This document shows positions 27,178 to 60,293 of a stretch of DNA of 64,000 bases, one piece after another. The number at the start of each line of letters is the position of its first letter. Position 1 is the first letter of the stretch. Under the pieces are notes generated by a model. That model had not been told where the DNA came from. It saw nothing but the letters and a program-made list of their open reading frames with translations, and did no database searches. Source of the stretch: Ostreococcus lucimarinus (taxonomy: Eukaryota); NCBI GenBank assembly GCA_000092065.1, contig CP000583.1. One strand, written 5' to 3'. The position numbers and the translations under genes were made by a program.

Positions 27178-27798
27178 CTATTCTGTCGTCTTCGCTCTGC
27201 GCCATCGCGCGTCTAACGCGTCGATCGCGCACGACATTTTCGCCTTCCCGAGCTTCTCGTTCACGACGTTGTGTCGCTCGCACACCCACTTCGCCAGCGC
27301 CTCGCGCGATTCGCACCTCGGCGGGTGCGCGTCGACGTCGGCTCGCAAATCCGCCCTGCACGTCGCGCACGGGTACAGGTCTCCCAGCGCGTCGAAGAAC
27401 CGTCGCGCTTGCACGCGCTGCGCGTGCGTCGGTTTTTGTGGGTAATACGCCGCGATCGTGTGCATCAGCGCCCACGACGCGCGTCCCAGTTCGTCGACGT
27501 CCAGCGGCGCCGCCGTCCCCGTCCCGGCGCCTTCGTCGGCGTTCGCGTCGTCGGCGTTCGTTCGCGTCGTCGACGCGTCGCGGTGCGTCGCTTTTCGCAC
27601 GGCGTCGAACAGATCGCGTCGCTTTTCGCACGCCCCGTCGTCGCACGTCGTCGACATCGTCGTATCGTCGGTGAATGCGCCGACGAATGGACGCGTCGCC
27701 GCATTCATCGCCGCATTCGTCGACGCATTCATCGAGTCCCGGAATCGCGCGCGCGTTCGCACGCGCGCGACGCTCCGCGGTCGGCGACGCGCGGACAT
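27178..27798 (-). CDS. ERV1: Erv1/ALR-family FAD-linked sulfhydryl oxidase
   Basis: LGRASWALMHTIAAYYP, redox-active YPCATCRADL, WVCERHNVVNEKLGK. The first ATG (27796-27798) overlaps the ATG of the divergent RCC1 gene; internal ATGs at ~27732 and ~27657 are alternative starts. Confidence 0.85.
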   Translation of the reverse strand: MSARRRPRSVARVRTRARFRDSMNASTNAAMNAATRPFVGAFTDDTTMSTTCDDGACEKRRDLFDAVRKATHRDASTTRTNADDANADEGAGTGTAAPLDVDELGRASWALMHTIAAYYPQKPTHAQRVQARRFFDALGDLYPCATCRADLRADVDAHPPRCESREALAKWVCERHNVVNEKLGKAKMSCAIDALDARWRRAKTTE

Positions 27799-38396: not shown

Positions 38397-40934
38397 ATGA
38401 CGAGCGATGGCGCCGCGCCGACGACGCCGAACGAAGACGAGCTCGCGCTCCGCGAACCTCTCGTCGGTGGAGCGACCGCGATCGAGTCGGGGTACGACAG
38501 CGACGTCGACGTTCCCGCGGACGCCTCGGCGTCCGTGCCCGAGGCGAGAAGAGAGGAAGAACCGACGACACCAGCCACGCCACCGCGACGAGTGAACTTT
38601 CGAGGGTTCACCGCGCGCACGCAGTCGTTGTATCTCGGCACGGAACGAACGTTGAGTACGCAAACGACGGATTCGGGCGCCCCGGAGGACGCGGTGGAGA
38701 GTTTGGATTTTGCCGACGTCGATTCCCATTGGGCGCGGCGCGCGCGCGGACGCGGCGTCTTCTCCAAAGTTTCGGCGAAGTGGATCGTGGCGGCGTTCAT
38801 CGGTGTCGGTGTCGGTACGATTGCGTTTCTCATCGATGTCTCGGTGCTCTATGCATACCGAGGTCGCGGGAAGCTGTTCGAAGTGTGTCGCCGACGCGTC
38901 CATCTGGCGTTGGCGATGTTTGCGTACGGCGGTGTCGGCGTCGCACTCGCCGCGATCGCTGGGGCTCTCACGACGTACGTCGCGCCGCGAGCCAAGGGTG
39001 CAGGGGTGCACTACGTCATGGCAATGTTGAACGGAATATACATTCCGAAAGCGTTCGATGCGTCGACGCTTTGGGTTAAAGCTGTAGCCACGATCGCTGC
39101 GGTATCGTCAGGACTTATGATCGGTCCGGAAGGGCCATTGGTACATGTGGGCGCTGCTATTGCGATGCAATTTACGCACGGAGCGTCTTCTGGTATGGCG
39201 GACCTCTTTCAATCGGACCTCGACCGCTCTGACTTCATATCCGCGGGCGCTGCGGCCGGGATCGCCGCCGCGTTTGGCGCGCCCATCGGCGGGGTATTGT
39301 TTTCGTTGGAGGAAGCGAGCACGTTTTGGAGAGAGAGCACGACGCGCCGCGCGCTGTTTTCGGCGAGCATCGCCACTTTTGTCCTCGCACTGGCTCGCGC
39401 GGTGTTTCTGGAAGGATCGGCGGCTTCAGAACATACGCAAATGAAAAATCCTGGCTTGCTTCGTGTGGGCGATTTCGATTCGACGTACTTTTTGATAGAG
39501 CTGCCGTTCTACGCCGCCCTCGCCGGCACGTGCGGTGTGATCTCAGGCATCGTGACAAAGTCAATCATCTTTGTGTCCACCAACTACACCCCGCAGCGAA
39601 ACGAACGTCGGCTTGCGCAAGTCGTTCTTGTCTCCCTGGCGTGCGTCGTAATGTTTTTCGGCGTCGCCGCCGCAGGAAAGTGCGTGACAGAGACCCCCGG
39701 TGAAGTGTCGAGATGGAGTGAAGCGTCGATACGATTGTGGTGCGCCGAAGGTGAATACGCGGACTTGGGTTCGATTCTACTGGGCAACAAAAACGATGTC
39801 ATCGCCTGGGTCCTCGGGTCGCCGGCAAAGGCGCACACTTTACACGCGTTGCTACTATCTTTCGCGACGACGCTCATCTCTCTGATCATGGCTGCGAACC
39901 TTTTCGTACCCGCTGGGCTGTTCATGCCCACAATTCTGTGGGGTTCGTTGCTCGGGCGAGCGGCGGCAATCGTCGTCGAGCACTCTTTGAGCCCGCTCGG
40001 CGATTTACGCGTGAATCCACACGCGTACGCGCTCGTCGGCGCCACCGCCGCGCTTGCTGGCACGTTTCGAGCCACGATTTCCGTCGTAATCATCGTGTTA
40101 GAGGGCGTCGGGAAGAGTGCGTTTCTATTCCCGCTCCTCATCGCCGTTGCGGGCGCAAATTTGGCGTCGCGACTATTTGGGGCGAGTCTTTACGAGGAAC
40201 AACTCGTGCGCTCGAAGATTCCATTTTTGCACGCCAAGCCGCCGAAAGCGCTCCTGGACGACTCCATCACAGCCTTCGATGTGTGCGCGCGCGACGTCGT
40301 CGCTTTCAAGGCGATCGAAAAAGTGAGTGCGATCGAAGAAGCTTTGGCCCAAACGACGCACAACGGATTCCCGATTCTCAGCGCGAAAGGCAAACGCGTC
40401 ATCGGCGTCATCCTTCGCAAGCAACTGCTCGTGCTCTTATCTCGCCGAGCGTTCGTGGAGAATCTCGTCCACGCGCCCGTGTTGAACTCATCAGCCATGG
40501 AAGAAGGTCACGACGACGACTCCGTGCTCGGCGGCCGAACGCCCGACGACGTCGTTTCGCTTCGCGTCGCCGAGTATTGCGCCGAGCTCACCAGAGTCAT
40601 GCGAGGCTTCCATCATCGTTCGAGCAGTTCTCGTCACGGTCGTCGCGCTGAGTCTTCCATCATCGCTCGACTCGGTCTCACCGACGTCGAGCGCGAGCGT
40701 CGTTGCGATCTGGGCGTCTTCATGGCGTTATCTCCCGCCTCCATCGCCGCCGACGCGCGCGCGAGAGACGCGTACGTCCTCTTCACTCGTCTCAGTCTTC
40801 GCCATCTGTGCGTCGTCGACGCCGCCACCGGCGCCATTCGCGGCATCATCACTCGTCACGATTTGTTCGACGCCGCGGAATCTGTCGATCGCTCGCTTCA
40901 TCACTCCGTTTCGTCTTCTTCGATTTTGTTGTAA
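38397..40934 (+). CDS. CLC-family voltage-gated chloride channel / H+-Cl- exchanger with C-terminal CBS domains
   Basis: ATG at 38397. Selectivity-filter motifs GPEGPLVHVGAAIA (GxEGP) and GAPIGGVLFSLEE. About 10-12 TM. C-terminal CBS pair (HNGFPILSAKGKRVIGVILRKQL; HLCVVDAATGAIRGIITRHDL). Confidence 0.9.
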   Translation: MTSDGAAPTTPNEDELALREPLVGGATAIESGYDSDVDVPADASASVPEARREEEPTTPATPPRRVNFRGFTARTQSLYLGTERTLSTQTTDSGAPEDAVESLDFADVDSHWARRARGRGVFSKVSAKWIVAAFIGVGVGTIAFLIDVSVLYAYRGRGKLFEVCRRRVHLALAMFAYGGVGVALAAIAGALTTYVAPRAKGAGVHYVMAMLNGIYIPKAFDASTLWVKAVATIAAVSSGLMIGPEGPLVHVGAAIAMQFTHGASSGMADLFQSDLDRSDFISAGAAAGIAAAFGAPIGGVLFSLEEASTFWRESTTRRALFSASIATFVLALARAVFLEGSAASEHTQMKNPGLLRVGDFDSTYFLIELPFYAALAGTCGVISGIVTKSIIFVSTNYTPQRNERRLAQVVLVSLACVVMFFGVAAAGKCVTETPGEVSRWSEASIRLWCAEGEYADLGSILLGNKNDVIAWVLGSPAKAHTLHALLLSFATTLISLIMAANLFVPAGLFMPTILWGSLLGRAAAIVVEHSLSPLGDLRVNPHAYALVGATAALAGTFRATISVVIIVLEGVGKSAFLFPLLIAVAGANLASRLFGASLYEEQLVRSKIPFLHAKPPKALLDDSITAFDVCARDVVAFKAIEKVSAIEEALAQTTHNGFPILSAKGKRVIGVILRKQLLVLLSRRAFVENLVHAPVLNSSAMEEGHDDDSVLGGRTPDDVVSLRVAEYCAELTRVMRGFHHRSSSSRHGRRAESSIIARLGLTDVERERRCDLGVFMALSPASIAADARARDAYVLFTRLSLRHLCVVDAATGAIRGIITRHDLFDAAESVDRSLHHSVSSSSILL

Positions 40935-40991
40935 CTCCCGATCGCTCGCTTCATCACTCCGTTTCGTCTTCTTCGATTTTGTTGTAACTCC
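40886..40991. repeat. perfect 53-bp tandem duplication spanning the CLC stop codon
   Basis: cgatcgctcgcttcatcactccgtttcgtcttcttcgattttgttgtaactcc x2. The first copy encodes the last 15 codons plus the TAA stop of the CLC gene; the second copy lies in the 3' UTR. Confidence 0.9.
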
Positions 40992-41045
40992 GCCTCGCGA
41001 CTCGCGAAATCCCTCAGTGCGCGCCTCGCCTCGCCGCGGTGTGTC

Positions 41046-41767: not shown

Positions 41768-43066
41768 ATGTTCGTCACCGCGACGTCGTCGCCAGCCGCG
41801 CGCGTCTCGGCTCCGAACGCGCGCTCGCGGTGTTCTCAGCGCGCCGTCGCGCGCGCCGCGTCGTCGCCCGCGAGCACGTCGACGCGACGCGTGGACGATG
41901 AAAACGAAAACGCGTCGTCGTCGGTTGAGTTCATCTTGGCGACGCTCGGCGCGGCGACGACGTGCGCGTGCGGGACGAACGCGGATGGAGTGCGAGGTTT
42001 ATTCGCGTCGCGAGACGTGCGACGCGGGGAGACGCTGTTGGAGGCGTCGCTCGACGCGCACGCCGTGGTGGACGACCCGAGCGGAGACGCGCCGTGGTCG
42101 AGGCAACTGGCGCGAAGACTCGTCGAAGAACGACGACGCGCGTCGACGGATTTCATGCGGCGCTACGTGTCGAGTTTACCGCAAATGGGCGATGGACCGG
42201 CGATCGGGCTGGCGAACGACGCGCGGTGCGTCGAGGCGTTACGCGACGTCTGGGATTGCACCGAAGCCGTCGCGGATATGACGACGTTCGCGCGACAAAT
42301 CGAAGACTCGTTCGCTCTCGAACGCGCGCTCGATTCAAGCCTGAGTGAAGACGAATGGCGATGGGCGGTGTCGTTAGTGCACTCGCGCACGTTTCGTCTC
42401 GAGGACGAGCGTGGACGGCGACCGACGCGACGCGCGCTCGTGGCCGGGGCGGATTTAATCAACCACTCTAGCGTCCCCGAAGACGTGAACTGCGATTGGG
42501 TGGCGAACGACGCCGATGTATTCTTCATATCCGCCACGAAAGACGTTCGCAAGGGTGAAGAATTTTTTCTGTCGTACGGTGAACAGTGCGATCGGCACTT
42601 TGCGTTATTTTACGGGTTTCTTCCGCGGCGGAACTCGTTCAACCGAGTGAAACTGTTCAACAACGGCCGCGAGGCGCTGGATTGGTATCGAAAGCTGTGC
42701 GGCGCCGACGCCGCGGACGATATCTGGAACCGAGAGAGCGAGCGCGTGGTGAAAATGGTGTGCGACAAGTACGGAAAATATACGTTAGATAAGAAATCCG
42801 GACTTCGACGACGAGTGATTCAAGATTTGTATCTCGGCGAAGGCTGCGTCGTGAGTGATTCGATGCTCCTTTTGTTCAACGAAATGTGTGGCGACGAAGA
42901 GATGGCGATCGCGGCGATACGAACGCGCGCGGAAGAGTTGAAGACAAAAATGGTAAGCGCGACGGGTAAAATAGAGACCGGTATCGCGGTGTTAGATGCG
43001 TACTCGCAAGGGCTCGTCCGCGATTATCGCTCTAGAAAAATAGACATTCTCGACGCCGTGATTTGA
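41768..43066 (+). CDS. SET-domain protein-lysine methyltransferase (Rubisco LSMT/SETD3-like)
   Basis: ATG at 41768. GLFASRDVRRGETLL, ALVAGADLINHSS, KGEEFFLSYG (SET pseudo-knot region), plus a C-terminal substrate-binding-like domain. Confidence 0.8.
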   Translation: MFVTATSSPAARVSAPNARSRCSQRAVARAASSPASTSTRRVDDENENASSSVEFILATLGAATTCACGTNADGVRGLFASRDVRRGETLLEASLDAHAVVDDPSGDAPWSRQLARRLVEERRRASTDFMRRYVSSLPQMGDGPAIGLANDARCVEALRDVWDCTEAVADMTTFARQIEDSFALERALDSSLSEDEWRWAVSLVHSRTFRLEDERGRRPTRRALVAGADLINHSSVPEDVNCDWVANDADVFFISATKDVRKGEEFFLSYGEQCDRHFALFYGFLPRRNSFNRVKLFNNGREALDWYRKLCGADAADDIWNRESERVVKMVCDKYGKYTLDKKSGLRRRVIQDLYLGEGCVVSDSMLLLFNEMCGDEEMAIAAIRTRAEELKTKMVSATGKIETGIAVLDAYSQGLVRDYRSRKIDILDAVI

Positions 43067-43116
43067 GGCGACTGTACATACAATTGTTTACATTTCGCGC
43101 CCTATTGCGTCACCGC

Positions 43117-43230
43117 CCAGTTACGTCGATATTAGCGTTTTCGTCGCGTCATCGATCCAAGATCCGGTTTTTAACACCACCCAGTTACGTCGATATTAGC
43201 GTTTTCGTCGCGTCATCGATCCAAGATCCG
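43117..43230. repeat. two 50-bp direct repeats (14-bp spacer) at the 3' ends of the convergent SET genes
   Basis: ccagttacgtcgatattagcgttttcgtcgcgtcatcgatccaagatccg at 43117-43166 and 43181-43230. The second copy contains the last 12 codons and stop (WIDDATKTLIST*) of the minus-strand SET gene. Confidence 0.85.
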
Positions 43231-44750
43231 TTTTTGAGCAGACTTTCTTCCGTGAGCACGCCTTGGACGGCCGCAAAAGTGCTCTTCGCTCCGGTACGAA
43301 GACGCTTCGCCGTGCGGAAACGCGCCGCGAACTCGCCGCCGACGGCTTCAGCCGTTCGCTCGAGCTCGGCAATCTCCGCGTCCGTGGCACCACAGACGAA
43401 TGCTTCCACTTGAGTAAGCAACCACGCGACGTATCGTCCCGCTCGCCGACGCGTTTCCGGCTTGAAACTAAACAACGAGCCGTCACCGCCGCCGTTCGAT
43501 GCGATCACCGCGGACGCGGCGACGGCGACGACTTCGTCCGCGTCGCAACACATGAGACCAGCGATACCACCGAGCACTTTTGGATTCCCTCGCATCGTGA
43601 GCACGAACGATAGTTCCTCGCCCTCGTTTAAGCCCAAAGCGCCGCACCGCTCGAGGAGTCTGCGTCTCAGCGCGGCGGTTTCTTCTCTATCTTCCTTCGC
43701 TACGGCGTTCAATCCGTTCGCGAACACAGTGTCTGGTAAGTTGAAAACGACCGAGCAATCGCCGTGCGACGGCGTCGAAGGTACGAATCCGTACCACAAC
43801 CACATTTCCTCATTCGACAGTTCGCCGTACGTCCAGCGCAAAGCTTGACCTTTCGCTACGTCGCGTGTCGTCTTCCAAATAGATTCGCCGACGTCATTCG
43901 ATTCGATGCTGACATTCGGCCCGTCGTCGCTGTCGTCGCTCGTGCTCGTGGGCGAGTGATTGAGCACGTCGCAAACGGGTACGAGACATCGCTTACGCTC
44001 GATGACGTCCGTTCCAGACTTTTTCACCGCGAACGTAATCGCTCGACTGCGCACCATAGACCACGCCCAAGCGAATTCGAGATCCTCCAACGCCGGCTCG
44101 TCGCTCATTTTAGCGACAATCTGTCTCGCGTCGGCGCATGACATCGCAAATTCTCGTCGCGCCGCGTCCACCTGGTCGACGAAGTGGAGCGAGAGCATCG
44201 GCACAAGCGCTTCCAACGATTCGTCCTCGTACAGCGCGGGCGTGTCCGCCGCCTCTTTCGGGAGCGACAACGCGTACGCCCCCAAAGCCGAACGTTCGGG
44301 ATATCGTTTCGCAAAAACCAACATGAGTGCCATCGGGACGTCATCGCTCACGAGTCTTTGTACTTCGCCTTCGTACGCAGAAATCGCCGCGTTTGCGCCG
44401 AAAGCGTCGTCGCTCCGCGCGTACGTGGCGTCGAACGCCGTCGACGACAGCGCGCGCGTCATGATGGGCGTGTCGGCCGGGATGTGGACTTTTGCCACGA
44501 CGCCGCACACGCCTTCTTCGCTCTCGACGCCCCCGATGTCGACTAAATCGTCGCGCGTTCGCGTCCCGTCTCCCGCCGCCGCCTCGCACAGACGAACGAA
44601 TCGCGCACCGTCGTCGACGGTCGCGTGCGCGCGCGCGCGACGCGCGCGAGGAGACGTCGACGCAAACGAAGATGAACTCGCACGTCGCGCGTCGTTCGCG
44701 ACGCGCACGACGTCGCGCGCGAGAGAGGTCGTCGCGAACGCCACAGCCAT
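43185..44750 (-). CDS. SET-domain protein-lysine methyltransferase (Rubisco LSMT/SETD3-like), paralogue of the upstream convergent gene
   Basis: ATG at 44748-44750. CLVPVCDVLNHS, QALRWTYGELSNEEMWLWYGFV, and a C-terminal helical domain. Confidence 0.8.
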   Translation of the reverse strand: MAVAFATTSLARDVVRVANDARRASSSSFASTSPRARRARAHATVDDGARFVRLCEAAAGDGTRTRDDLVDIGGVESEEGVCGVVAKVHIPADTPIMTRALSSTAFDATYARSDDAFGANAAISAYEGEVQRLVSDDVPMALMLVFAKRYPERSALGAYALSLPKEAADTPALYEDESLEALVPMLSLHFVDQVDAARREFAMSCADARQIVAKMSDEPALEDLEFAWAWSMVRSRAITFAVKKSGTDVIERKRCLVPVCDVLNHSPTSTSDDSDDGPNVSIESNDVGESIWKTTRDVAKGQALRWTYGELSNEEMWLWYGFVPSTPSHGDCSVVFNLPDTVFANGLNAVAKEDREETAALRRRLLERCGALGLNEGEELSFVLTMRGNPKVLGGIAGLMCCDADEVVAVAASAVIASNGGGDGSLFSFKPETRRRAGRYVAWLLTQVEAFVCGATDAEIAELERTAEAVGGEFAARFRTAKRLRTGAKSTFAAVQGVLTEESLLKNGSWIDDATKTLIST

Positions 44751-44825
44751 GGCGTCAAAAAGTGTCGCGTCGTCTTGCGACGACGCTCGCCGACGCGCGA
44801 GGACACGCGGGCGAACGCGCGAGCG

Positions 44826-45653
44826 ATGAAGGTGACGCCATCGATGCTTCGACGCGTCGTGGTGTTCGGCGGCAGCGGATACGTGGGGAGCGCCATCGCG
44901 AGGGCGCTGACGCTGGTGACGACGTCACCGGCTGTCAAGGCGACGACGCAAACGACGTCGAGCGATGCGGCGAAGGCGGACGCGAAGGCGGACGCGAGCG
45001 ATGCCGTCGATATCGTGTGCGCGTCTCGCACGGGCGCACCTCCGTCTTGGGCGCGCGACGAACCGTGGGCGGCGCGCGCGCGTTGGGTAAAGTGCGACGC
45101 GCTCGACGTCGCGCAGTGTCGAGAAACCGTACGAGGGGCTACCGCGGTCGTCACCGCGATAGGTGGCTTACCATTTCCTTGGCTCAAAGCTGAAGAAATC
45201 GTGCGAACAAACGGGGCGACGAACGTGATTCCCGGTCGAGCGGCGATGGAAGAGGGCGTGCGAAGATTGGTCGTTGTCGGAGCCTCGATTCCGCCATTCG
45301 TGCCTGGTCTCGCGTCTTACGCCGAGGGCAAGGCTCAGGTGGAGGCGTTCGCGCGAGACGAATTTGCGAGTGAAAGCAACGGACGGCGTGCGTTCATACT
45401 CAAGCCCGCGGCAGTGAGCGGGACGCGCAGAATGGGTGGCGGCGTAACGCTTCCTTTGTCGCTCGTCATGGACCCGACGCGAGCGATTTTACGCGCGTGC
45501 GGCGGCGCGCTCGTCGAAAATGCTCCAGTTCCTTTGGAAAACGTTGCGCGAGCGGCGGTGAAAGCGGCGCTAGATGACGCGTACGGCAACGATGGGTTCA
45601 CGATGATCACGAACAAGTCACTCATCGAGGACTTTGGTGGCGAAGTCGCGTAG
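44826..45653 (+). CDS. NAD(P)-binding Rossmann-fold protein (NmrA/atypical SDR-like)
   Basis: ATG at 44826 (MKVTPSMLRRVVVFGGSGYVGSAIARAL = GxxGxxG dinucleotide-binding motif). The 75-bp spacer to the divergent SET gene suggests a shared promoter. Confidence 0.6.
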   Translation: MKVTPSMLRRVVVFGGSGYVGSAIARALTLVTTSPAVKATTQTTSSDAAKADAKADASDAVDIVCASRTGAPPSWARDEPWAARARWVKCDALDVAQCRETVRGATAVVTAIGGLPFPWLKAEEIVRTNGATNVIPGRAAMEEGVRRLVVVGASIPPFVPGLASYAEGKAQVEAFARDEFASESNGRRAFILKPAAVSGTRRMGGGVTLPLSLVMDPTRAILRACGGALVENAPVPLENVARAAVKAALDDAYGNDGFTMITNKSLIEDFGGEVA

Positions 45654-45731
45654 GCGAAATCGCGTAGCGACGAATCGCGAAAGCGACTTCGGCGCGCAGT
45701 ACTAGTACTAGAACAAATGTTGTATTAAAGA

Positions 45732-46496
45732 CTAAACGATTCCAGCTGCTTCGGCGATTGCCTGCTTCGCTCTACCCAACCTACGTCTGCGCTCCCACGG
45801 CATTTCGTCGTCGAAGACTTCCACCGTCCGCTTCGGCGCCGCGTCGGTTTCTTCGACGGTGACTCTGACGTGCGAGCGCGGGCGATGCATGACGCCTGCG
45901 CGTCCTCGACCGTGGATGGAAACCCGTCGCAGGTACTCGCCCTTTCCGACCGTCGCGGACGACACTACTAGTCGCTCGCGATCGAGCCCTTGATTGTTAA
46001 CCGCGTTTCCAATGGCGCTCTGGAGCACCTTCGCTACAGTCTTCGCCACTCGCTTTGGACTCATGTCGCACTGGATGAGCGCGTCGTCGACGCGAAGCCC
46101 GCGGACGAGGCGGAGAAACGCGCTAAACTTCTTCGGTGAGCCTTTTGCGCCCCGTAGAATCGCACTCGCGCTCTCGGATATCCCCTCGTCCGTCAACGCG
46201 CCCGGGATGAACGCGCCTCGCAAAGCGTTGGTCGGCGCCGGCGCCTGTCGCAGCGGACTCACGCCGGGTTCACCGCTCGAAGACGCCGCAGAAGATGTTG
46301 ACGTCGCGTCTTCGCTCGCTTGATCACCTTTGCCGTCGAACGCGCGCGGTGAGGCGTGAAAACTCCGCACGCCGCGCGCGGTGTGCAACCAGCCGTCGAA
46401 CGGTGCGAACGTCGACGGAGACGCCGTTGACGTGGACGCGCGCACGCTCGAGCTCGCGCGATGCAGCGTGCGCAGCGTTGCGAGCATTCTTGACAT
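45732..46496 (-). CDS. RPL22: organellar ribosomal protein uL22 (bacterial type)
   Basis: RGAKGSPKKFSAFLRLVRGLRVDDALIQCDMSPKRVAKTVAKVLQSAIGNAVNN is a uL22 core. Start placed at MSRMLATLRTLHRASS (~46494-46496, presequence-like); the track ORF extends to 46946. Confidence 0.8.
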   Translation of the reverse strand: MSRMLATLRTLHRASSSVRASTSTASPSTFAPFDGWLHTARGVRSFHASPRAFDGKGDQASEDATSTSSAASSSGEPGVSPLRQAPAPTNALRGAFIPGALTDEGISESASAILRGAKGSPKKFSAFLRLVRGLRVDDALIQCDMSPKRVAKTVAKVLQSAIGNAVNNQGLDRERLVVSSATVGKGEYLRRVSIHGRGRAGVMHRPRSHVRVTVEETDAAPKRTVEVFDDEMPWERRRRLGRAKQAIAEAAGIV

Positions 46497-46663
46497 CGTC
46501 GATGCGCGGTGCGTCTTTCGTCGTCGTCGACGCGCGACTGAGTGAAGACGAGGTGATCCCTGCAAACCCTGGCGCGCGCGCGCGCGCCGCGTTCTCGTCG
46601 CTCGTTTTGGCGGTTTAAGTTTTGGTTGCAGCTGAATAACACAGACAAAATTGTGACGGCGAT

Positions 46664-48414
46664 CTAGGCGCGTGGCGGGGTGGTCCACCCGGCTTCCACA
46701 GGACCGCGGTCGTAAATGACCTCGCGATGGCACGACCAGACGAGCCGAATCGCTTCGATGGTTCCGATTCCACCGGCGAGCGGCGTGCCGGCGGGACCGA
46801 ACCAATGGTTTTGAGGCGCGCCCGTCGTTCTCGCGCGTCGACCGGCGTACGTGGTACCGTTTACAGTTGATCCAAGGACGCGCTGGACGAACAACTCGTC
46901 GCTCGACACCACCGCGGCGGTCAGATGTGCGTCCATTTTCTCGCACGCGTCGAGCACGAGCGAGACTTCGTCGTCGCAGTAAGACGTGAGCACTTGCAGC
47001 GGGCCGAAAATTTCCGTCGTCGCGAGCTTGAAGTTTTCATCGCTCGCCATGATTGTTTTTAACGGGACAAAGATAGCCGTCGGCTCGATGGCGCCGTATT
47101 GCGAGGGAATATTATGCTCCCCCTCGTTCAACTCTCTTCCGCCGAAGGCGACGCGAGCGCCGGGGAGTTCAGCCAGTTTCTTCGCGTGATCCAACATCGT
47201 TTGCGTGGTCACGGTGAGCACGGGGCCAACCGTCAAGTCGCTCAGATTGCGCTGCGCCGCGAGTGATGCGATCTTCGCTTCAATTCCAGCCTTGACCCAG
47301 TTCTCGTGCATGAACAAAATTGATTGCGCCGAACACTTTTGACCGCTGCACGCGTACGCGTCCTGATCGCAAACGTGCGCCACGTAATCAACGTCACCGA
47401 CGTCCGGGCCGAGAATCTTCCAATCGAACCCAGCGTCTTCGAGCTTGACGTTGCCGTCGAGCTCTTTTGTGAGATGGTGCGCAACCTTTTGCGACCCAGT
47501 GAAGAGCGTCATCTTCGGTTTCGCTCTGCGCAAAATTTCGTTCATCGTCGCGCCATCGCAGTTAATGAAATCCAGGTCGGTCGCCGGGGCCCCGCATTCG
47601 AGCATGAGCCTGATGAACTGCTCGAGCACGATGGAAACTTTCGTATCAGATTTTACCAACGCCTTGTTCCCCATGAAAAGCGCGCCCATGAGTTGCAACA
47701 CGGGAATCTCCAAGGGAAAGTTGAAAGGCGTGATGACGGAAACCGGTCCGTACGGCCATCGCAACCCGTGCGACGTTTGGCCGAGATGGTCTCCGGAAAC
47801 GGAAAATCCTCGCGCCAGAAAACGTACGTTGTCGCCTGCGAAGTTTTCCAAAAACTTTCGCGTCACTACGACCTCAGCGAGAGCTTGAGCGTGGGATTTC
47901 GGCGCCACGCGTTGAATGAGTCGCGCGAAGAATTCCTCCACGGCCGGTTTGCGCATCTCCTCCGCCAACTTCGCGCTGACTTCACCGTACTTCAGGTAGC
48001 GTTCAGGCGCCTTGAATGGATTATGCAACCCGCTCTTCGGGCACGACGCCAACGATCGCGCGACTTCGGCAATCTCGCCTTCGGTGTTCGTCTTCGGCGC
48101 GACGACGACGACGTCGTCCTTCGCCATCGGGTCCACCACGCGTTCAGTCGTCTCCCCCGTTGACGGTGCGCGCCAGGTGCCGTTTATGAGATTCGCGCAC
48201 GTCGCCGGTCCGCCGGTGCGCCGCGACATCGCCTCTGGGTCGCACGTCGCCCACGTCGGTACATTCCGCGCGGCGCACGCCCGTCCTCGTCCTAACGACT
48301 TTGCGCGCGCTGATTGTGCTGACTGTGCGCGCGCGAAGGACGTCGATGCGACGGCGTCGCGCGGCCAACACGCCGACGCGCGCGACGCGAGCGCGCGTCT
48401 CGCGCGCGCGTACA
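46664..48414 (-). CDS. aldehyde dehydrogenase (ALDH12 / delta-1-pyrroline-5-carboxylate dehydrogenase-like), mitochondrial presequence
   Basis: ALDH fold with catalytic region ELGGKSP-equivalent (MTLFTGSQKVAHHL) and catalytic Cys context YACSGQKCSAQS. First ATG MYARARRALASRA (~48412-48414); the track M1 is GTG. Confidence 0.8.
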
Positions 48415-48604
48415 TCGCGCGTCGATCGCCGCGTCGCGGAGTCACGCGTCGAACGTCCTCGCGCGCGTCGACGTCGTTTGATTTGATTAATCAAAAACAT
48501 CCACCCGCGCGGTGGTCGTTCGCCTCGAACGACGCGCGATCGTCATTCGGACGCGCGCGCTCGGTCGTCGACCGCGGGAGCGTCGAGCGCGCGCGACCGC
48601 GGCG

Positions 48605-50134
48605 ATGACTTCGCCGCCTCGATCGGTGTCGCAGGCGCTGTTATCGCCCGTGCGACACGTCCTCGCGAGCTTGCGAACGAACTCGTTCGAAGGCGAACGA
48701 TTCGTCGGCGACGAAGGGGGCGAGGACAAGCGTGAGGAGATATTCGCACGCTTAGAAGCACACGTGGAGAACGGGCTGAAGAAGAACACGCTGAGCGACG
48801 GTGATATCTTTGAGTTGATTCGCTTGACGACGGCGTTCGGGTTAGAGGAAGTAGGGACGTCGAACGCGGGCGCCGCGTTGGAAGCGGCGCGGTACGTGCT
48901 CACGGGGTCGAGCGCGACGGCGACGACGGGAGATTCAGAGGTGTTTCACGCGTCAACGCCCATGAGTGCGAATGGAACGCTCACCGCGCAGCCGTTGTCA
49001 CCGCCTCCGACCGCGACGACGCTCTTGGCGAGAACGGCGTCTGGGGGCGCTCAGACGGCGCCAAACACGCCGCAGCCCGATGACGGAGGTAGAATGGAGT
49101 CTGCGACAACTGCAACTAGTACGATGAGAGACGCTGCTCGCGCGACGAAGTCTTCGTCACTTCGTTCGAAGAGCAAGTCGGCGCTTTCGTCCATCGCCGG
49201 CGCGACTGACGAATCGAAAAAGCCAAAGCCGCGCCGGAGAACCGATGGAGAAACGGTCGAAGATCGTTTGCTCCGCGAGTGGATTCTTAGACAAGCGCGC
49301 GAGTCGGCGCGAATGGAAGAGATACGTCAAGCCGAACTCGCCGCAACCCGAAAAGCAAATTTGACGGGTCGACAGATTATGGAAAGCGTCGAGTCGCTGC
49401 GCGCGCGCGGCGAGGCTAGCCGCAAGCAGCAAGAAGAAGCACGAAAGGCGGCGGAGGCGAGCGCACGTCGACTCGCGATGCGGAGTGTGTCGGCGCACAT
49501 CGGTAAGAAGACTCGGGAACTCACAGCGAAGATGCCCGACTTTTCTTCGCGCCAACAGAGATTTGCGTCAAAGGCGGCGGAACGCGCGGAGCAACGACGT
49601 CGGGAAGCCGAAGAAGAAAAACGAGCCAAAGAAATGGTTGATGTTTCTGGAGAGCGCGTGCCCATGACGAACCGAGCGGCGCAGACGCATAGAACGCTTG
49701 AAGACCTTCAGGCGTGGAACGATCGCAGAGAAGAGAAAATCCGTAGCGCCAAGGCGAAGAAGGAGCAGGAAGAATTGCACGGGGCGACTTTCGCGCCGGT
49801 GTTGGATCAAAGGTCGCTACGCATGGCGCTGAAGAAGCGCATGGCGCTGAAAAAGTCACGCGAGGACTTCGCGACGTCAATAAATCATGAGCGTGACGCC
49901 GATGACGCCCGCCACCCATTTACGCCGCGTCTCGTTTCTCGACAACGTGAGACTCCGAGAGATGTCGTGCTCGAGCGACTGTATAGCGCGTCAAAATCGA
50001 CGCAAAAGAAGTCGGCCACGCCGGATAGAACTCCGCGCGAACACTGGGGTGGCTACGGCGTCGACGACGATCACCCAGACGCTGACGCGGGGGCGTCGGG
50101 GTTCATCTCGCTCGCCGAGCTCGACAGAGAGTAA
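48605..50134 (+). CDS. hypothetical charged/coiled-coil protein
   Basis: ATG at 48605 (MTSPPRSVSQALL). Codon usage is consistent with neighbouring genes. Long K/E/R-rich helical segments. No recognisable domain. Confidence 0.45.
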   Translation: MTSPPRSVSQALLSPVRHVLASLRTNSFEGERFVGDEGGEDKREEIFARLEAHVENGLKKNTLSDGDIFELIRLTTAFGLEEVGTSNAGAALEAARYVLTGSSATATTGDSEVFHASTPMSANGTLTAQPLSPPPTATTLLARTASGGAQTAPNTPQPDDGGRMESATTATSTMRDAARATKSSSLRSKSKSALSSIAGATDESKKPKPRRRTDGETVEDRLLREWILRQARESARMEEIRQAELAATRKANLTGRQIMESVESLRARGEASRKQQEEARKAAEASARRLAMRSVSAHIGKKTRELTAKMPDFSSRQQRFASKAAERAEQRRREAEEEKRAKEMVDVSGERVPMTNRAAQTHRTLEDLQAWNDRREEKIRSAKAKKEQEELHGATFAPVLDQRSLRMALKKRMALKKSREDFATSINHERDADDARHPFTPRLVSRQRETPRDVVLERLYSASKSTQKKSATPDRTPREHWGGYGVDDDHPDADAGASGFISLAELDRE

Positions 50135-50335
50135 ACGTAATACTGGTACATGTTATTTAAGACGTTTCGTTTCATCGATCATTCGCGTTGACGAGGTACA
50201 GGTAGACCGTAATCGTCGGGTCGGGTCCATGAGTCAAGAATGCCCATCCGACTATCGTCTTGAGTCATGAGCAGTAAACAGTCACGATGTGTGCTGCCTC
50301 GTCAAAACCGCGCGCGCGCGTGACGCGCGTTCCCG

Positions 50336-50995
50336 ATGCGCGCGTCGTGCGCGAGTACCCACGTCGGTGAAGTCGCGTGTTCGTCCTCGCGCGACACCGC
50401 GCGCACGAGCCGCGTTCGCGCGCCGCGCGCGTATTCGCGCGCGTGCGTCGAGCGTCGAGCGTCGAGCGTCGTCGCCCTAACCACCGCGCGTCGTGCTTCG
50501 GCGCTCATCGTCGGCGCCGTGGGCGACGAAGACGACGACGCGCGCGCACCGCGTCGCCGCCGCCGCCATCACCGCCGGGATGTCTCGACGTCGGCGATGA
50601 GCGATGTCGTGGCGAGCGGGGACGACGACGACGACGACGGGTCCTCGCGACTGGGCCAAACGCGCGTGCAACGCGCGGTCGATTCGTTGCGAACGAAGAC
50701 CTGGCGCAGGGCGAAGAAGAACTTTAAAAAGCTGCCTCTGGCGTTGATTTCTCTGCTGGTCGGATTTTCCGTGTGTGCGCTGCTACCTCATCCCGAAAGC
50801 CCGCAAGACGCGTTCATTTCGTTCACCATAATCTTGCTCGCCGAGTTCGCCTCGAGCGTGCTCTACGGCGACGAAAACCAAGGCGGGATTTTGCGTTGGG
50901 TTCGCGAGGGCGATTGGCTACCGACGGTTTTAAATTGCTTCAAGATTGGTGTTTTATACGGTTTATTCTGCGATGGTTTCAAAGTCGGGTCGTGA
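50336..50995 (+). CDS. Ycf20-like (DUF565) small plastid membrane protein
   Basis: ATG at 50336. Transit-peptide-like N-terminus, then KKLPLALISLLVGFSVCALL...EFASSVLYG, resembling Ycf20 (KLPVKILFFLVGFYCATAF...EGISLLLYRG). Confidence 0.45.
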   Translation: MRASCASTHVGEVACSSSRDTARTSRVRAPRAYSRACVERRASSVVALTTARRASALIVGAVGDEDDDARAPRRRRRHHRRDVSTSAMSDVVASGDDDDDDGSSRLGQTRVQRAVDSLRTKTWRRAKKNFKKLPLALISLLVGFSVCALLPHPESPQDAFISFTIILLAEFASSVLYGDENQGGILRWVREGDWLPTVLNCFKIGVLYGLFCDGFKVGS

Positions 50996-51098
50996 ACGCG
51001 AACGAGCCTAGTCATTTGCAACGTCAACGTCAACGTAACGTCGACGAAAAATTCTGTAGCTCTCCTCGCGTCGCCGCCGCCTCGCCCGCACATCGACG

Positions 51099-51743
51099 AT
51101 GTCTTCCGAGCCCTCGACGTCGGGCAGGATCGCAATCGATGTCACCGCGCGCGAGGACTTACACGCATGCATTCGTCGCGCGAGCTCGCACCCCGACGTC
51201 GATCGCGACGTGCGCGAACGATGCGTCGAGGCGTTGAAGGACGCGCACGCGCGCGGTGTGGATTACGACGTCGTCTTCGACGCGTGCGATGCGTTGCGAG
51301 CGATCGGCGACGGCGAAAACGTGCCGAGCGTGCGCGCGGTGCTCACGCTCGCGAACATTCGCTTCGAAGTCGTTCGCGAGCGCGAGGAGCTGACCGAGGA
51401 GGAGAAGGAGGCGAGGCGAGCGCACCGCGAGCTCATGGCGACGCTGCGAGACGTCGTCGAGGCACGCGCGTTCGCGAAGATGACGTGCGATGTGGATCGC
51501 ACTCGAGGATCAGACCGCTCGTCTCCGATGGGATTTAAGGCGGATACGCGCGCGTTTGGGTTCGCCGCGCACGTGCTGACCGTCATGTTCGCCTTCGCGT
51601 GCGCGGGATACGTCGGCGGCGGCGCGTTGGAGCGCGGCGGCGCGAATCCCGCGTGGGCGCGAGGGCTGTGCGCCGCCCTCGGCGCCGCTCTCGGGCTCAC
51701 GGTAGAGGCAGGATTGATGATTTTACGCGAAGGTCGCGTGTAG
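51099..51743 (+). CDS. hypothetical protein with C-terminal transmembrane hairpin
   Basis: 214-aa ORF with typical codon usage. Soluble acidic N-domain and two C-terminal TM helices (FGFAAHVLTVMFAFACAGYVGGG; GLCAALGAALGLTVEAGLMIL). Confidence 0.4.
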   Translation: MSSEPSTSGRIAIDVTAREDLHACIRRASSHPDVDRDVRERCVEALKDAHARGVDYDVVFDACDALRAIGDGENVPSVRAVLTLANIRFEVVREREELTEEEKEARRAHRELMATLRDVVEARAFAKMTCDVDRTRGSDRSSPMGFKADTRAFGFAAHVLTVMFAFACAGYVGGGALERGGANPAWARGLCAALGAALGLTVEAGLMILREGRV

Positions 51744-51757
51744 TTAAAATGTAGAAG

Positions 51758-52519
51758 CTAGTCGCCGCCCAATCTGCGCCCTTGCCCCGCGAAGTATCGC
51801 TGTCGAGGCGGTTGCACGACGTTTGAAGCGGCGCTCACCACTCCGTTTCCGCTATTGATGTAATCCGCGAGTGCGTGCACAAACTTCGGCGTTTGGATGA
51901 TCGATCGTCGCCCGCTGTGTAGTGGGTACAGGCGCGCGAAGAAGTAATACGCGTGCCCGACGATAATGCCCAAGAAATCAGGCATCGGGTCGCCTCCCAT
52001 GAGCGCCGTCATCACGAGCATGGCCCAGGGAAAATAAAACGCGCCCACGCGCACGATTCCCATCAACGATACCCTCGCCCGCGGGTGCTCTCGACTCCAC
52101 AAGTACAGGCACATGAAAATTAAGCTATCGCCGTAGAACGCTTGCGCGATCGACGGCACGACGAGCTCGAGCGGCGTCAACGCGCACGCGCCGAAGAGGA
52201 GAAACGCGATATAATCCGCCGTCCCGCTCGCGCCCGTGAACGCCTCCTTCTCGAGCGACACCGAGTACTGCGCGATCATCACCATGCGCATCGCGAACCC
52301 TAAGCTCAGCTTCCCCAAAAACGCAAAGTTCGTCAGCAATCGCCACGGTTGAAACTTCCCGCCCTTGGCGAGTGAAATCATTCGCCACGACAGCATCATC
52401 GCGCGCGGGTCGACGAATTTCGCGTGGAACCCGAGCGTGCTCAGCGCGCAGGACGTGAACCAAAACTTTGATATCGGCGGCAGCGCGGCGTACCACGCCT
52501 GCGGGGAATCCGCGGACAT
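51758..52519 (-). CDS. Derlin (Der1-like ERAD component)
   Basis: [30 protein letters not shown]...[11 protein letters not shown]...SLEKE is the Der1 signature. Four TM segments. Confidence 0.85.
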
Positions 52520-52673
52520 CACGCGCGGGCCTCGACGAAATCGAGTCGCAATCAACCCAAATCACGAAATCAATCGCGTCGCCGTGTGCCGCGGCTGCGC
52601 GGCCGCGATGGGCGAGCGCGAGATCGCGACGCGTTCGTCGTCGCGCGTCCGTCGTCGTCCGTCGACGACAGCG

Positions 52674-53711
52674 ATGATGCGTCGAACGTCGATCAAGTCG
52701 TTGATCGAGCGCGCGAGCGCGGCGAGCGCGGCGAGCGCGGTCGCGCGCGCGGCGCGCGCGGCGTTCACGTCGTCGTCAACGGCATCGGTGCGCGCATCGT
52801 CGTCGTCGCACGCCGACTCGCCGGCGGTGTTCGTCGACAAGAACACGCGCGTGATAGTGCAAGGGTTCACGGGCAAGAATGGCACGTTTCACAGCGAACA
52901 GGCGATCGCGTACGGGACGCAAGTCGTGGGCGGGGTGACGCCGCGCAAGGGCGGAACGACGCACTTGAATCTGCCCGTGTTCGACACCGTGCGAGAGGCG
53001 AAAGAGAGCACGAAAGCCAACGCGAGCGTGATTTATGTCCCACCACCGTTCGCGGCGCGGGCGGTGATGGAGGCCATAGAGGCGGAAGTCGAGCTCGTCG
53101 TGTGCATCACGGAGGGGATTCCGCAACACGACATGGTGCGAGTCAAACAGGCGCTGATGTCGCAAAGCAAAACGCGATTGATCGGGCCGAACTGCCCGGG
53201 AATCATCAAACCCGGCGAGTGTAAGATTGGAATCATGCCTGGATACATTCACAAGCCAGGACGCGTGGGCGTGGTTTCACGAAGCGGGACGTTGACGTAC
53301 GAGGCGGTGTATCAGACGACCGTCGCGGGACTCGGGCAGAGCACATGCGTGGGGATCGGGGGCGACCCTTTCAACGGCACTAATTTCGTCGATTGTCTGG
53401 AGAAGTTCGTCAAGGATCCGCAGACGGAAGGCATCATCATGATCGGCGAGATCGGCGGCACCGCGGAAGAGGAAGCGGCGGAGTTTATTCGCGCGAGCGG
53501 TACCGAAAAGCCGATTGTATCCTTCATCGCGGGGCTCACCGCACCCCCAGGCAGGCGTATGGGTCACGCCGGAGCGATCATATCAGGCGGTAAGGGTAGC
53601 GCAGGCGATAAAATCGCCGCGCTCGAACGCGTCGGCGTTCGCGTCGTCAAGTCGCCGGCGAAGATGGGCCAGGCGATGTACGAAATGTTTGGCGAACGAA
53701 ACATGCTGTAA
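52674..53711 (+). CDS. succinyl-CoA ligase alpha subunit, mitochondrial
   Basis: ATG at 52674 ([15 protein letters not shown], presequence). [39 protein letters not shown], active-site His region [17 protein letters not shown]. Confidence 0.9.
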
Positions 53712-53843
53712 ACTAATTCTGGTTGATATCGGTCGTCGACGCCGCTGTTACGCGACACTGCACTACTCTACGCGCTACTTGCTTGATAATACTATACTTA
53801 CGCTTGCGTGCCTACGTGCGTACCGACGGACTTTGCGACGATT

Positions 53844-54902
53844 TCACGCGCACGCCGCCACGGCGTCGATGGGCTCGCGTCTTCGCTCAAGAAACTCGCG
53901 CATGGCCGTGCTTCGCGAACGCAACGGCACGTGACAGCACCGCTGATACATGGATCTGTGCAGGCCGAACTGCCGCCGAACGTCAGCCACCGTTGCGCCC
54001 GCCTCGCGTTTGATCCACGCCTTTGTGGTGATGTCGAGCACGAACATCACCCAGTGCGTCCACGCGAAACATACGAAACCAATGACATGCGCGCCCGACA
54101 GGGCGCACGCGAGTAACATGTAAGGCCACGCCGTAGAACGCCACGCATTCTTGGACATCTTCGCGAGCGAATACGCCGCTACAATAAATATGAGAACTCC
54201 CATCGCTGCGCCGCTCGTCAAGAGGGCCAGAAACCAACTATGGTTGTACTCACCGACGCAGTTCCCGATCACGCCGCAGTGATGGTCGAACCTTCGCACG
54301 CACACGTTGCATGTCGCGCAGTGCGTCGCCATCGGCGGTCGCCAGAGTTGGCACGTGACGCAAAACTTTAACCTCGCGTCGTCGTTCGTCGCGCTCGTTT
54401 CGGTTAGAGCTCGTCGCGTCCACGCGCCGCCGAAATCTCGATCCATGCCCCAAGAGCGCGCTTCGGCGTCTTCTTCGACGGCATCGATGACGCACTGTCT
54501 AAGTCTATCGCTGTACGATGGGCACTTGTCCCCGCTTTTGCTCTCCTCGCTCGTCGCTTCCGCCTTGACGCGCGTCGCCTCGTCGAGGCGCTTCACGCAC
54601 GCCGCCGCGCGGTCGTCCTCTGCCGTCGGTACGACGATCCCCGGGTCGCTCGCGCGCGTCATCCACGCGCACACTAACGCGCACACCGCCGTGACCAAGA
54701 TCGCGCTCTGCCAAATCCATCGGCGAAGCCCGAATTCGTCCTTCGTCGCGTCGTCCAGGGCGTTGTCTTCGTCACCAATCCACAGCGCGATCGACGCGCT
54801 CGCGGCGAGCGAGGCGAAGGCGACGATGCACAGCGCGAGAGAGCGACACGCGGCGCGTTCTCTCGCTCTCGCGCGCGAGCGCGACGCGCGCGAGGCATCC
54901 AT
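53844..54902 (-). CDS. DHHC-type protein S-acyltransferase
   Basis: ATG at 54900-54902 (MDASRASRSR). DHHC-CRD: CVTCQLWRPPMATHCATCNVCVRRFDHHCGVIGNCVGEYN, flanked by four TM helices. Confidence 0.85.
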   Translation of the reverse strand: MDASRASRSRARARERAACRSLALCIVAFASLAASASIALWIGDEDNALDDATKDEFGLRRWIWQSAILVTAVCALVCAWMTRASDPGIVVPTAEDDRAAACVKRLDEATRVKAEATSEESKSGDKCPSYSDRLRQCVIDAVEEDAEARSWGMDRDFGGAWTRRALTETSATNDDARLKFCVTCQLWRPPMATHCATCNVCVRRFDHHCGVIGNCVGEYNHSWFLALLTSGAAMGVLIFIVAAYSLAKMSKNAWRSTAWPYMLLACALSGAHVIGFVCFAWTHWVMFVLDITTKAWIKREAGATVADVRRQFGLHRSMYQRCCHVPLRSRSTAMREFLERRREPIDAVAACA

Positions 54903-54980
54903 GTCGACTGTACGACAGCCTGTGCGGCGAACGCGGCGCACCGACCGACGACGTCGTCCGCACTGCGACGCGCGCGAAAG

Positions 54981-55652
54981 ATGACGACGACGACGACGAC
55001 GACGACCAAGGCGTCGACGACCAAGGCGACGACCAAGGCGACGGCGACCAAGACGGCGCAGCGCCCCGTCGCGACGCGCGCGGCGCCGGCGAATGCGACG
55101 AAGCAGGTGCGGCGCGCCGAACGCCACCGGACACCGAGCGACTGACTCTATCCACTCGCGCAGGCGAGCGCCGAGTTCGAAGCGCCGAATCAGTACGGAT
55201 ACTTCCCGTCCGCGATCGAGGCCGCGAGGAAGAAACGCGCGACGCAAACTGGGTTCGACAAGCAAGTCAAGATGACGAAGGCGGAGCAAAAAGAACGTTT
55301 CAGCTCGCTGTGCTCGAAGCATCCCGAGCTGCAAAAGTGCAGAGACGACTACGTGTCGCCGCTTCGGGTGAAACCGTCGACGCAGAGCGTCATCAACGGA
55401 AGCGTCGTGCGCAGCGATGGTATCATTTTAGTGCCCGGGAATAAGGATGACTTGGTGACGTGGGCGCTCGATCCCGCCATGTCCGGCGACACGCTCGGAT
55501 TGTTGCTCCCGACGCTCTTCATCATCATCGGCGCGCAGCTCAAGCAAGCCGCGGGGGTGCCGGAGTACGTCTCTGGCGCGGTCGGGGTGACGACCAAGCT
55601 CATAGCCACCGGTCTCGTCGCGTTGTACTGGGTGCCAAACTTTGTGAACTAA
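54981..55652 (+). CDS. small organelle-targeted two-TM membrane protein of unknown family (two exons: 54981..55106 and 55164..55652)
   Basis: Exon 1 MTTTTTTTKASTTKATTKATATKTAQRPVATRAAPANATKQ (transit-peptide-like, (ACG)7 run) ends at donor CAG|GTGCGG. 57-nt intron with CTGAC branch and CGCGCAG acceptor. Exon 2 continues in frame through the track ORF 55272..55652, which has a C-terminal hydrophobic pair (LGLLLPTLFIIIGAQL; LIATGLVALYWVPNF). Confidence 0.6.
55107..55163 (+). other. short spliceosomal intron (57 nt)
   Basis: GTGCGGCGCGCC...GAGCGACTGACTCTATCCACTCGCGCAG. Confidence 0.65.
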
Positions 55653-55912
55653 TATCAGCTCTGATCGCTCTCGATGAAGCTGACCATTGACCGCGATATC
55701 AACGGCGCGAGAAACAACGGACTTCGGGCGCTCGCCGACGGCGGATTCGGCCGAACGAACGAGTACTGGACGACAATGTAAACAGAACTACCCCGCCCCG
55801 CGAATTACGGGGTGACACAGGCAGCCGAGCGAGCTAGGCGTTTCACTCGCGCCGACGACGCGGGGGCGGCGTTCTAAAACTTTCATTCTTCTACACGCTC
55901 TACACACTATTC

Positions 55913-56632: not shown

Positions 56633-56733
56633 GACGCACGTTTTGACCGACGGACGACGCGTCGTGCGCGCGCGCGCGCGCGCGAGTGCTGTCGCGGCGC
56701 TGGTCCCGAACGTGGCACAGCGCGGCTCGCGCG

Positions 56734-56766
56734 ACGATCGATCGATCGATCGATCGATCGATCGAT
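56734..56766. repeat. (GATC)7-8 palindromic microsatellite in the divergent LSM/PDI-like intergenic region
   Basis: cgatcgatcgatcgatcgatcgatcgatcgatg. Self-complementary tetranucleotide repeat ending in an ATG at 56765. Confidence 0.9.
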
Positions 56767-56878
56767 GGGCGTCGATACGCCGACGGTGGCGAAGATGGAC
56801 GAACGCGATGGGCGTCGTGGTCGAACGCGCGCCGCGCGCTCGGCGAAGGCGTCGCTCGCGTGTCGTTTAACTCGCACG

Positions 56879-58390: not shown

Positions 58391-58447
58391 TCCTGCGCGA
58401 CCGACTGCTGCACTACTAGCTAAATATTTGTTACAATAGACCCATGG

Positions 58448-59233: not shown

Positions 59234-59282
59234 GTCGAGAGTCGACGTGTGCCGCGCTCGACGGGGACGGGCAAGCGAAGGC

Positions 59283-60155: not shown

Positions 60156-60293
60156 GATGAGGCGTCCGCGAGGCGCGCAGTGCGGGACGACGATGACGGC
60201 GAGGGAATCGCGCGTGATGACCAAATCAGGTTGTAGGCTTCTATGTGCTAGGTTTCTATGCTTCCGTTCAAAACGTCCTTCTCGCGCGATTCG

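Follow-up and report, generated by a model that had tools for sequence, protein, structure and literature searches.

Tandem duplications of tens of base pairs arise when staggered breaks are filled in and joined in a Ku-dependent way, while products of polymerase theta show microhomology (PMC8355091). In fission yeast, tandem duplications collapse about 100 times faster than they form (PMC8639346). In mutation accumulation lines of related Mamiellophyceae, the mean insertion was 1.9 bp and the mean deletion 9.8 bp (PMC5455958), which indicates that events of 50 to 60 bp are rare. Two duplications of about this size are described here in a 64,000-nt stretch of nuclear DNA from the marine picoalga Ostreococcus lucimarinus, which is referred to as the window and provides all coordinates. 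One is located at the end of a gene for a CLC-type chloride channel/antiporter (CLC) and the other at the end of a gene for a divergent SET-domain paralogue (SET-like gene), and both include the stop codon. They are genuine tandem duplications, probably near-neutral, made by end joining, and kept because the stop codon was included. This is a known kind of mutation, met in a new organism and with a natural allele series.

One described system for comparison is patch-mediated or paired-nick end joining, with fill-in by Pol alpha-primase/CST or by Pol lambda/mu and joining by Ku (PMC8355091). Its products are likewise head-to-tail duplications of tens of base pairs with blunt junctions, without microhomology and with occasional mutated or filler bases (the “TD+” class), and they occur as natural insertions in plants and humans. 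Unlike them, the duplications described here are natural polymorphisms of a picoalga for which break and enzymes are inferred only; a stop codon is part of both large events, and one of the two sites is now a small copy-variable array. A minisatellite or variable number of tandem repeats (VNTR) locus is similar with respect to the units of 52 to 64 bp, the 1 to at least 3 copies among individuals, and the identical spacers in a three-copy allele, with copies kept identical within a lineage. In contrast to such a locus, only 1 to 3 copies are present here, the array is very young, and it begins in coding sequence with a stop codon. The microhomology-mediated duplications of fission yeast also show high rates of formation and reversion and are constrained by the reading frame (PMC8639346), but their defining end microhomology is missing here (0 nt). 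Target-site duplications or excision footprints of transposons are direct repeats made at a break, too, and in a sister lineage a 113-bp insertion resembling a miniature inverted-repeat transposable element (MITE) is located close to a deletion hotspot, at a distance of about 50 bp. However, 51 to 53 bp far exceeds known target-site duplications. A transposon footprint was dropped as an explanation at this unit length, since no allele among about 35 records contained an element between the copies.

Structure of the CLC and SET-like duplications

Self-comparison of the sequence revealed at the CLC gene an exact 53-bp repeat in two adjacent copies (positions 40886 to 40991), so that the perfect 53-bp tandem duplication across the CLC stop codon reported in the initial annotation was confirmed. 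The run of period-53 matches is exactly 53 nt long, which gives exactly 2.0 copies with, on both sides, 0 nt of microhomology: the base preceding copy 1 is a T while the last base of the unit is a C, and the base following copy 2 is a G while the first base of the unit is a C. The Tandem Repeats Finder match percentages were 100% for the CLC and 96% for the SET-like repeat. The only other exact local repeats of at least 24 nt in the 64 kb were an 81-bp coding array (4684 to 6197), a CGAT run, and the telomere. A chance origin of exact repeats of 51 to 53 nt is excluded because the probability of such an exact match is about 4^-51. Directly downstream of the CLC array (40992 to 41010), the sequence CTCGCGA is itself a 7-bp tandem duplication, which is single in record L012 of the sister lineage, and CG and GC are swapped at the right edge of the array in record L016.

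The SET-like repeat consists of two exact 51-bp copies separated by the 13-nt spacer GTTTTTAACACCA, with a period of 64, between positions 43116 and 43230. The initial annotation was right about this duplication and about inclusion of the stop codon in it; its values of 50 nt for the copies, 14 nt for the spacer, and 43117 for the start were each off by one. On the plus strand, the 13-nt junction reads G, TTTTTAA, and CACCA, while the flanks of the array are TTTTTGA on the right and CACCG on the left. Compared to the flanks, the junction contains one inserted G and two G-to-A changes (TTTTTGA to TTTTTAA and CACCG to CACCA). All three changes are within the 13 junction bases, and none is in the 2 × 51 identical bases, which indicates that the changes were most likely made during the duplication event itself. 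The allele with the 64-bp period is thus best read as a duplication of 63 bp whose junction is scarred. The spacer between the stop codons of the two convergent SET genes is 118 bp in the window compared to 54 bp ancestrally.

The features of the window are listed in Table 1, with the two duplications first. The gene labels of the initial annotation were right in substance: the CLC protein contains the Voltage_CLC domain (PF00654) and CBS, and the 432-amino-acid (aa) protein of the convergent gene contains PF00856. A Pfam search with the 521-aa SET-like protein gave no match, and in a BLASTP comparison with the neighboring SET protein its SET core was aligned, with 29% identity over 134 aa (E = 1e-10). 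The nearest named protein to CLC is from O. tauri (60% identity).

Table 1. Coordinates of the duplications, the genes that carry them, and other features of the 64,000-nt window
Feature	Position	Strand	Remarks
CLC duplication, copy 1	40886–40938	+	Last 15 CLC codons, TAA stop (40932–40934), and CTCC
CLC duplication, copy 2	40939–40991	+	Identical to copy 1; in the 3' untranslated region (3' UTR)
SET-like duplication, gene-proximal copy	43180–43230	−	Last 14 codons, TAA stop (43185–43187), and CTGGG (gene strand)
SET-like duplication, distal copy	43116–43166	−	In the 3' UTR/spacer toward the convergent SET gene
13-nt junction between the SET-like copies	43167–43179	−	Gene strand TGGTGTTAAAAAC
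CLC-type chloride channel/antiporter gene	38397–40934	+	845 aa; Pfam Voltage_CLC (PF00654) and CBS
Convergent SET-domain gene	41768–43066	+	432 aa; PF00856; stop 43064–43066
SET-like gene (divergent SET-domain paralogue)	43185–44750	−	521 aa; stop 43185–43187
Exact 16-bp duplication, two copies (GAATGAAAAGACGCCT)	11589–11620	+	Contains the TGA stop (11592–11594) of an RPE65-family gene
14-bp duplication, 2.1 copies, 13 of 14 identical	45639–45667	+	Contains the TAG stop (45651–45653) of an epimerase-like gene
ALDH gene	46664–48229	−	Protein identical to XP_001417108.1 of O. lucimarinus CCE9901
Gene with about 19 copies of a 27-aa repeat (..GHLECLKYLHEHGCPWDE..)	3989–6244		81-bp array 4684–6197
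Telomere repeat (TTTAGGG)n	63787–64000		Window end

Copy-number alleles, age, and origin

The window was compared with about 35 independent contigs, from metagenomes or genomes in ENA, JGI, and Logan, which were gathered by exact-protein look-ups and one metagenome pattern scan and are designated by L numbers where they need to be told apart. Records from the same species differed from the window at 0.1 to 0.6% of the sites, and the Logan contigs of run SRR1179203 were 100% identical to it. The CLC unit was present in two contiguous copies in 20 records and in the window, in one copy in five records (L014, L015, L033, L042, and L049), and was interrupted by Ns or by a contig break in another five. 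The SET-like unit occurred as a single copy in 14 records, as two copies with the 13-nt spacer in the window and in L008, L015, and L046, as three copies with the same spacer in L005, and as a perfect 52-bp duplication without a spacer in L003; three scaffolds contained N gaps at this site, one of them with at least three copies. The check for presence or absence among independent assemblies, as proposed in the initial annotation, thus found both loci polymorphic, and the variation of the copy number within the species (1, 2, or 3 for SET-like and 1 or 2 for CLC) is a feature that they have in common with VNTR loci.

The repeats could be artefacts of assembly or polishing, as N gaps are present at these sites in the scaffolds L001, L010, L035, L045, L048, and L050 and the contigs L017, L037, and L038 end there. 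The same junctions, however, recurred in more than 20 independent assemblies, produced by different programs, and also in contigs of 956 to 966 kb, and several distinct alleles exist. Moreover, the Logan contig L037 of run SRR1179203, assembled with k = 31, comes to its end after exactly 30 nt of the CLC unit. At this point, a k = 31 de Bruijn graph should branch if the unit is truly repeated in the reads. An artefact is therefore excluded for both repeats and was left with a negligible probability. The single-copy CLC alleles of L014 and L015 have private single-nucleotide polymorphisms in common on both sides of the site, which argues that this allele is a real haplotype instead of a collapsed assembly. 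At the SET-like site, L003 and L005 possess the same flanking haplotype. The 52-bp allele, with boundaries 4 and 7 nt away, may come either from an independent event or from a 64-type allele that lost 12 nt of its junction.

A sister lineage (L011 to L013), about 3.6% diverged from the window, contains a single copy at the SET-like site, which indicates that the single copy is ancestral there and the duplication young. At the CLC site, L012 is also single-copy, with a unit ending in TGAGTGT, while L011 and L013 contain two copies, the first ending in TAACTCC, like that of the window, and the second in TGAGTCC. The copies in these duplicated contigs (two of the three) differ at 2 of the 53 positions. 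Presence of the duplicated form in the sister lineage indicates that the CLC duplication predates the 3.6% split or crosses it. The conclusion of the initial annotation that perfect copies mean very recent events does not hold for CLC, since the duplication is found in 20 of the 25 resolved records and in two of the three contigs of the diverged lineage. With a diversity of only 0.1 to 0.6% within the species, identical 53-mers are a poor guide to age. The identity of the CLC copies in the lineage of the window probably reflects low diversity and cycles of contraction and re-expansion, not recency. No duplication was found at the CLC stop codon in five other Ostreococcus lineages (L051 to L055, O. 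tauri included), with CLC identities of 56 to 66%.

The junctions point to end joining. Both duplications are exact head-to-tail repeats of a unique segment of tens of base pairs with no or minimal microhomology, and one junction is scarred. The junction of the 52-bp SET-like allele also contains 0 nt of microhomology and cannot be shifted by a single base. A direct repeat shared by the two ends of the unit, which is typical of microhomology-mediated duplications, was missing at CLC (0 nt), and inverted repeats were not found at the duplication boundaries. An origin from a hairpin or by template switching was dropped because of these boundaries without inverted repeats. A structured RNA was dropped as well: the duplications gave no match to an Rfam family, with one sub-threshold hit elsewhere in the region, and comparison of folds with those of shuffled sequences gave z-scores of +2.15, −0.25, +1.66, and +0.57, that is, no stable fold. 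Both large units begin with CG(G)ATC and end just past GTAACT, a post hoc observation that is not common to two small duplications of the window (Table 1).

In the proposed mechanism, a staggered double-strand break, resulting for instance from two nearby nicks on opposite strands, would be followed by filling in of both overhangs. The filled ends would be joined without homology, leading to a head-to-tail duplication, and each duplication would have arisen once or a few times. A blunt outcome would have produced the 53-bp CLC duplication and the 52-bp SET-like allele, and an error-laden short junction the allele with the 64-bp period. Replication slippage or unequal exchange may then have added or removed units, yielding the alleles with one, two, or three copies that are present in marine populations today and keeping the copies identical to each other.

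Alternatively, the duplications could have been generated in the first place without any break, by slippage of replication or by template switching, as in microhomology-mediated duplications. The later changes in copy number, with one, two, and three copies and identical 13-nt spacers in L005, are typical of slippage, and in fission yeast duplications of this kind occur commonly and can be reversed (PMC8639346). Slippage, however, depends on short direct repeats at the two ends, and the founding junctions contain 0 nt of microhomology; moreover, simple slippage does not make a 13-nt scarred junction. As the founding event, slippage is therefore highly improbable.

Location at stop codons

Translation ends in the first copy, so the protein is unchanged and the additional copy only lengthens the 3' UTR. 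The duplications persist because the stop codon is included and the protein is left unchanged. None of the lengths 52, 53, and 64 is divisible by three, so that such an event within coding sequence shifts the reading frame, and no frameshifting duplication was seen inside genes in about 58 kb of about 10 haplotypes. About 90% of the window is coding and the spacers are short, about 50 to 95 bp for those between 3' ends, which indicates that a duplication of 50 to 60 bp hardly survives elsewhere. With an ancestral SET spacer of 54 bp, a 63-bp unit at this site had to include a stop codon. In a null model restricted to this window, units were placed at random over the de-duplicated sequence and counted as tolerated when they were wholly intergenic or spanned a stop codon. 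The probability that a tolerated unit of 52 to 64 bp spans a stop codon was 0.34 to 0.41, and the probability that both large duplications do so by survivorship was about 0.14.

Some observations weigh against duplication by end joining and mere survivorship at the stop codons. The repair pathway, including the break and the enzymes, is deduced from its products. Two junction types over nearly the same 51 nt at the SET-like site suggest repeated breakage or a second event at the first junction. The single-copy calls come mostly from short-read metagenome assemblies, in which a collapse of repeats is not fully excluded. All four non-coding duplications of the window that are not of low complexity span a stop codon, the two small ones also. 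In the plain model, this has a probability of about 0.001, which rises to about 0.04 if only the 80 nt following stop codons are free to vary. Finally, five of the five non-coding, non-microsatellite insertion/deletion (indel) polymorphisms of at least 9 bp are located 0 to 65 nt downstream of a stop codon. Of the small duplications, the one at the RPE65-family stop is fixed in 10 haplotypes, and that at the epimerase-like stop is fixed and common to the sister lineage. All other non-coding duplications of the window are CG-rich repeats in promoters that resemble microsatellites.

These data bring up the alternative, akin to the mechanism at termination or convergent gene ends suggested in the initial annotation, that gene 3' ends are true hotspots for breaks, due to nucleosome-free terminators, breaks linked to convergent transcription or termination, or meiotic double cuts by Spo11. 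In addition to the stop codons in four of the four complex duplications and the two junction types at the SET-like site, the distal ends of the four duplications are 0 to 12 nt past the stop codon, three of the four are located between convergent genes, and in L010 a deletion of 18 bp starts 12 nt past a further stop codon. A further site that fits a hotspot is located downstream of the ALDH gene (46600 to 46664, junction 46639), 25 to 63 nt downstream of the ALDH stop codon (46664 to 46666, minus strand), which is at the same time some 150 nt upstream of the start of rpL22. The 18 sequences compared there (L001 to L018) contained nine alleles, which were a full 46-nt form, a substitution variant, and nested deletions of 1, 2, 3, 4, 11, 11, and 38 bp grouped in a stretch of about 20 nt, compared to a background diversity of 0.1 to 0.3%. 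This pattern looks like repeated breakage followed by imprecise joining at one spot.

On the other hand, six related loci, together about 120 kb from O. tauri, the sister lineage, and four uncultured lineages, contained about 27 non-coding tandem duplications, of which none spanned a stop codon and most were near start codons. A test pooled over the first three of these related loci was borderline, with a probability of about 0.05. The window had been chosen because of its stop-spanning pattern, so that any test for clustering in it is biased, and the value of about 0.04 applies when only 3'-proximal DNA may vary. The boundaries share neither a motif nor a hairpin, and a divergent promoter (27650 to 27790) is hypervariable, too. 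Survivorship explains much of the 3' clustering, and a true 3' hotspot is possible, albeit not established; as the explanation of the whole pattern it is considered unlikely. A marginally lower probability is given to the specific version in which the first tens of bases past stop codons would be preferred sites of breakage and imprecise repair would yield both stop-spanning duplications and nested deletions.

A few variants were observed beside these sites. A 9-bp tandem duplication (GGTGATGTT) at position 27146, downstream of the Evr1/Alr stop codon, is polymorphic (L031 and L032) and would also fit a hotspot, and a 6-nt replacement at the same position in L034 creates TACAACTACAAC. The divergent Evr1/Alr-RCC1 promoter at 27650 to 27790 is far more polymorphic than its surroundings, with several haplotypes among 10 sequences that differ by many single-nucleotide polymorphisms and small indels. 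The 113-bp MITE-like insertion of the sister lineage (L011 to L013) is located in the ALDH-rpL22 spacer at position 46587; its terminal inverted repeats, approximately CTGATTCGTC[G/C]CACT.AAAA, resemble the deletion hotspot in the ALDH 3' UTR. A link between transposons and this hotspot was dropped, with three weak matches to the MITE terminal repeat in the window versus 4.9 expected.

Possible effects of the duplications on the 3' ends need to consider the polyadenylation [poly(A)] signals. UGUAA is the main poly(A) signal in Ostreococcus (PMC6413133). The CLC unit contains a TGTAA overlapping the TAA stop codon, indicating that a candidate poly(A) motif is duplicated at CLC, with two TGTAA motifs 53 nt apart. 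No TGTAA is present in the SET-like unit, and the putative poly(A) signal of this gene (AAATGTAAA, gene strand) is likely located beyond the array. The effect of this array is simply a longer 3' UTR and a convergent spacer that grows from 54 bp to at least 118 bp. Duplication of the terminator or poly(A) context, as assumed in the initial annotation for both genes, may thus apply to CLC and not to the SET-like gene.

A third explanation is that selection favors the duplications, because they lengthen short 3' UTRs and convergent spacers or provide CLC with a second poly(A) signal, with less read-through or antisense overlap as the result. The CLC duplication has a frequency of about 80%, occurs also in the diverged lineage, and provides a second TGTAA. 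At least two SET-like copies are present in the window and in each of the three chromosome-scale JGI contigs (956 to 966 kb; L003, L005, and L008), and convergent spacers of about 41 to 48 bp in O. tauri compare to 78 to 118 bp at the three duplicated spacers here. However, the single copy is in the majority at the SET-like site with its 14 records, the SET-like unit is without TGTAA, and a high frequency is equally expected from drift together with recurrent expansion and contraction. Selection for the duplications is therefore considered improbable, and near-neutral duplication by end joining, retained with the stop codon, is preferred.

Surrounding region and meaning for Ostreococcus

The window has a G+C content of 61.7%, and its coding portion of about 90% refers to the gene list made in this analysis. 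With the telomere repeat at its end, the window is a chromosome end, and the CLC and SET-like duplications are about 20 to 23 kb away from the telomere. In O. tauri and four other Ostreococcus lineages (L051 to L055), the SET gene is directly followed by a MUS81/ERCC4 gene. About 17 kb lie between both genes in the window (43000 to 60300), including the SET-like paralogue, the epimerase, rpL22, and ALDH. Comparison of these gene orders points to a rearrangement of the region or an insertion into it in the O. lucimarinus lineage.

Other variants were found along the window. At the CLC gene, a 6-bp insertion upstream of the start codon (position 38285) is present in L006 and an in-frame 15-bp insertion in the N-terminal region (position 38769) in L039, and the 850-aa CLC variant P0157 occurred on 17 contigs. 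The gene with the 27-aa repeats is wholly missing in L019, L020, and L023, and the repeat number is lower in L021, L022, and L024; L025 and L026 end nearby, and many metagenome contigs terminate at this gene. Positions 1 to 3100 of the Tara contig L040 contain a Tmrp11_N/methyltransferase-like gene (472 aa) beside a peptide deformylase gene, where other haplotypes contain ribosomal protein S13 and a 954-aa gene, so that L040 is a structural variant or a chimeric contig.

Public metagenomes alone provided an allelic series of what would be break-repair duplications, with one, two, or three copies and two junction types, in a host with one of the most compact genomes of free-living eukaryotes. 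If the 3' clustering is mutational and not selective, a localized source of breakage, possibly meiotic, would be indicated. To our knowledge, the sexual cycle of this alga has never been observed. Should breakage at gene 3' ends be true, these ends would be the main place where this streamlined genome gains and loses non-coding DNA. The CLC and SET-like loci may be used as strain markers in O. lucimarinus populations. The constraint by the reading frame shapes where such duplications persist, with 3' UTRs and short convergent spacers growing while the proteins remain untouched.

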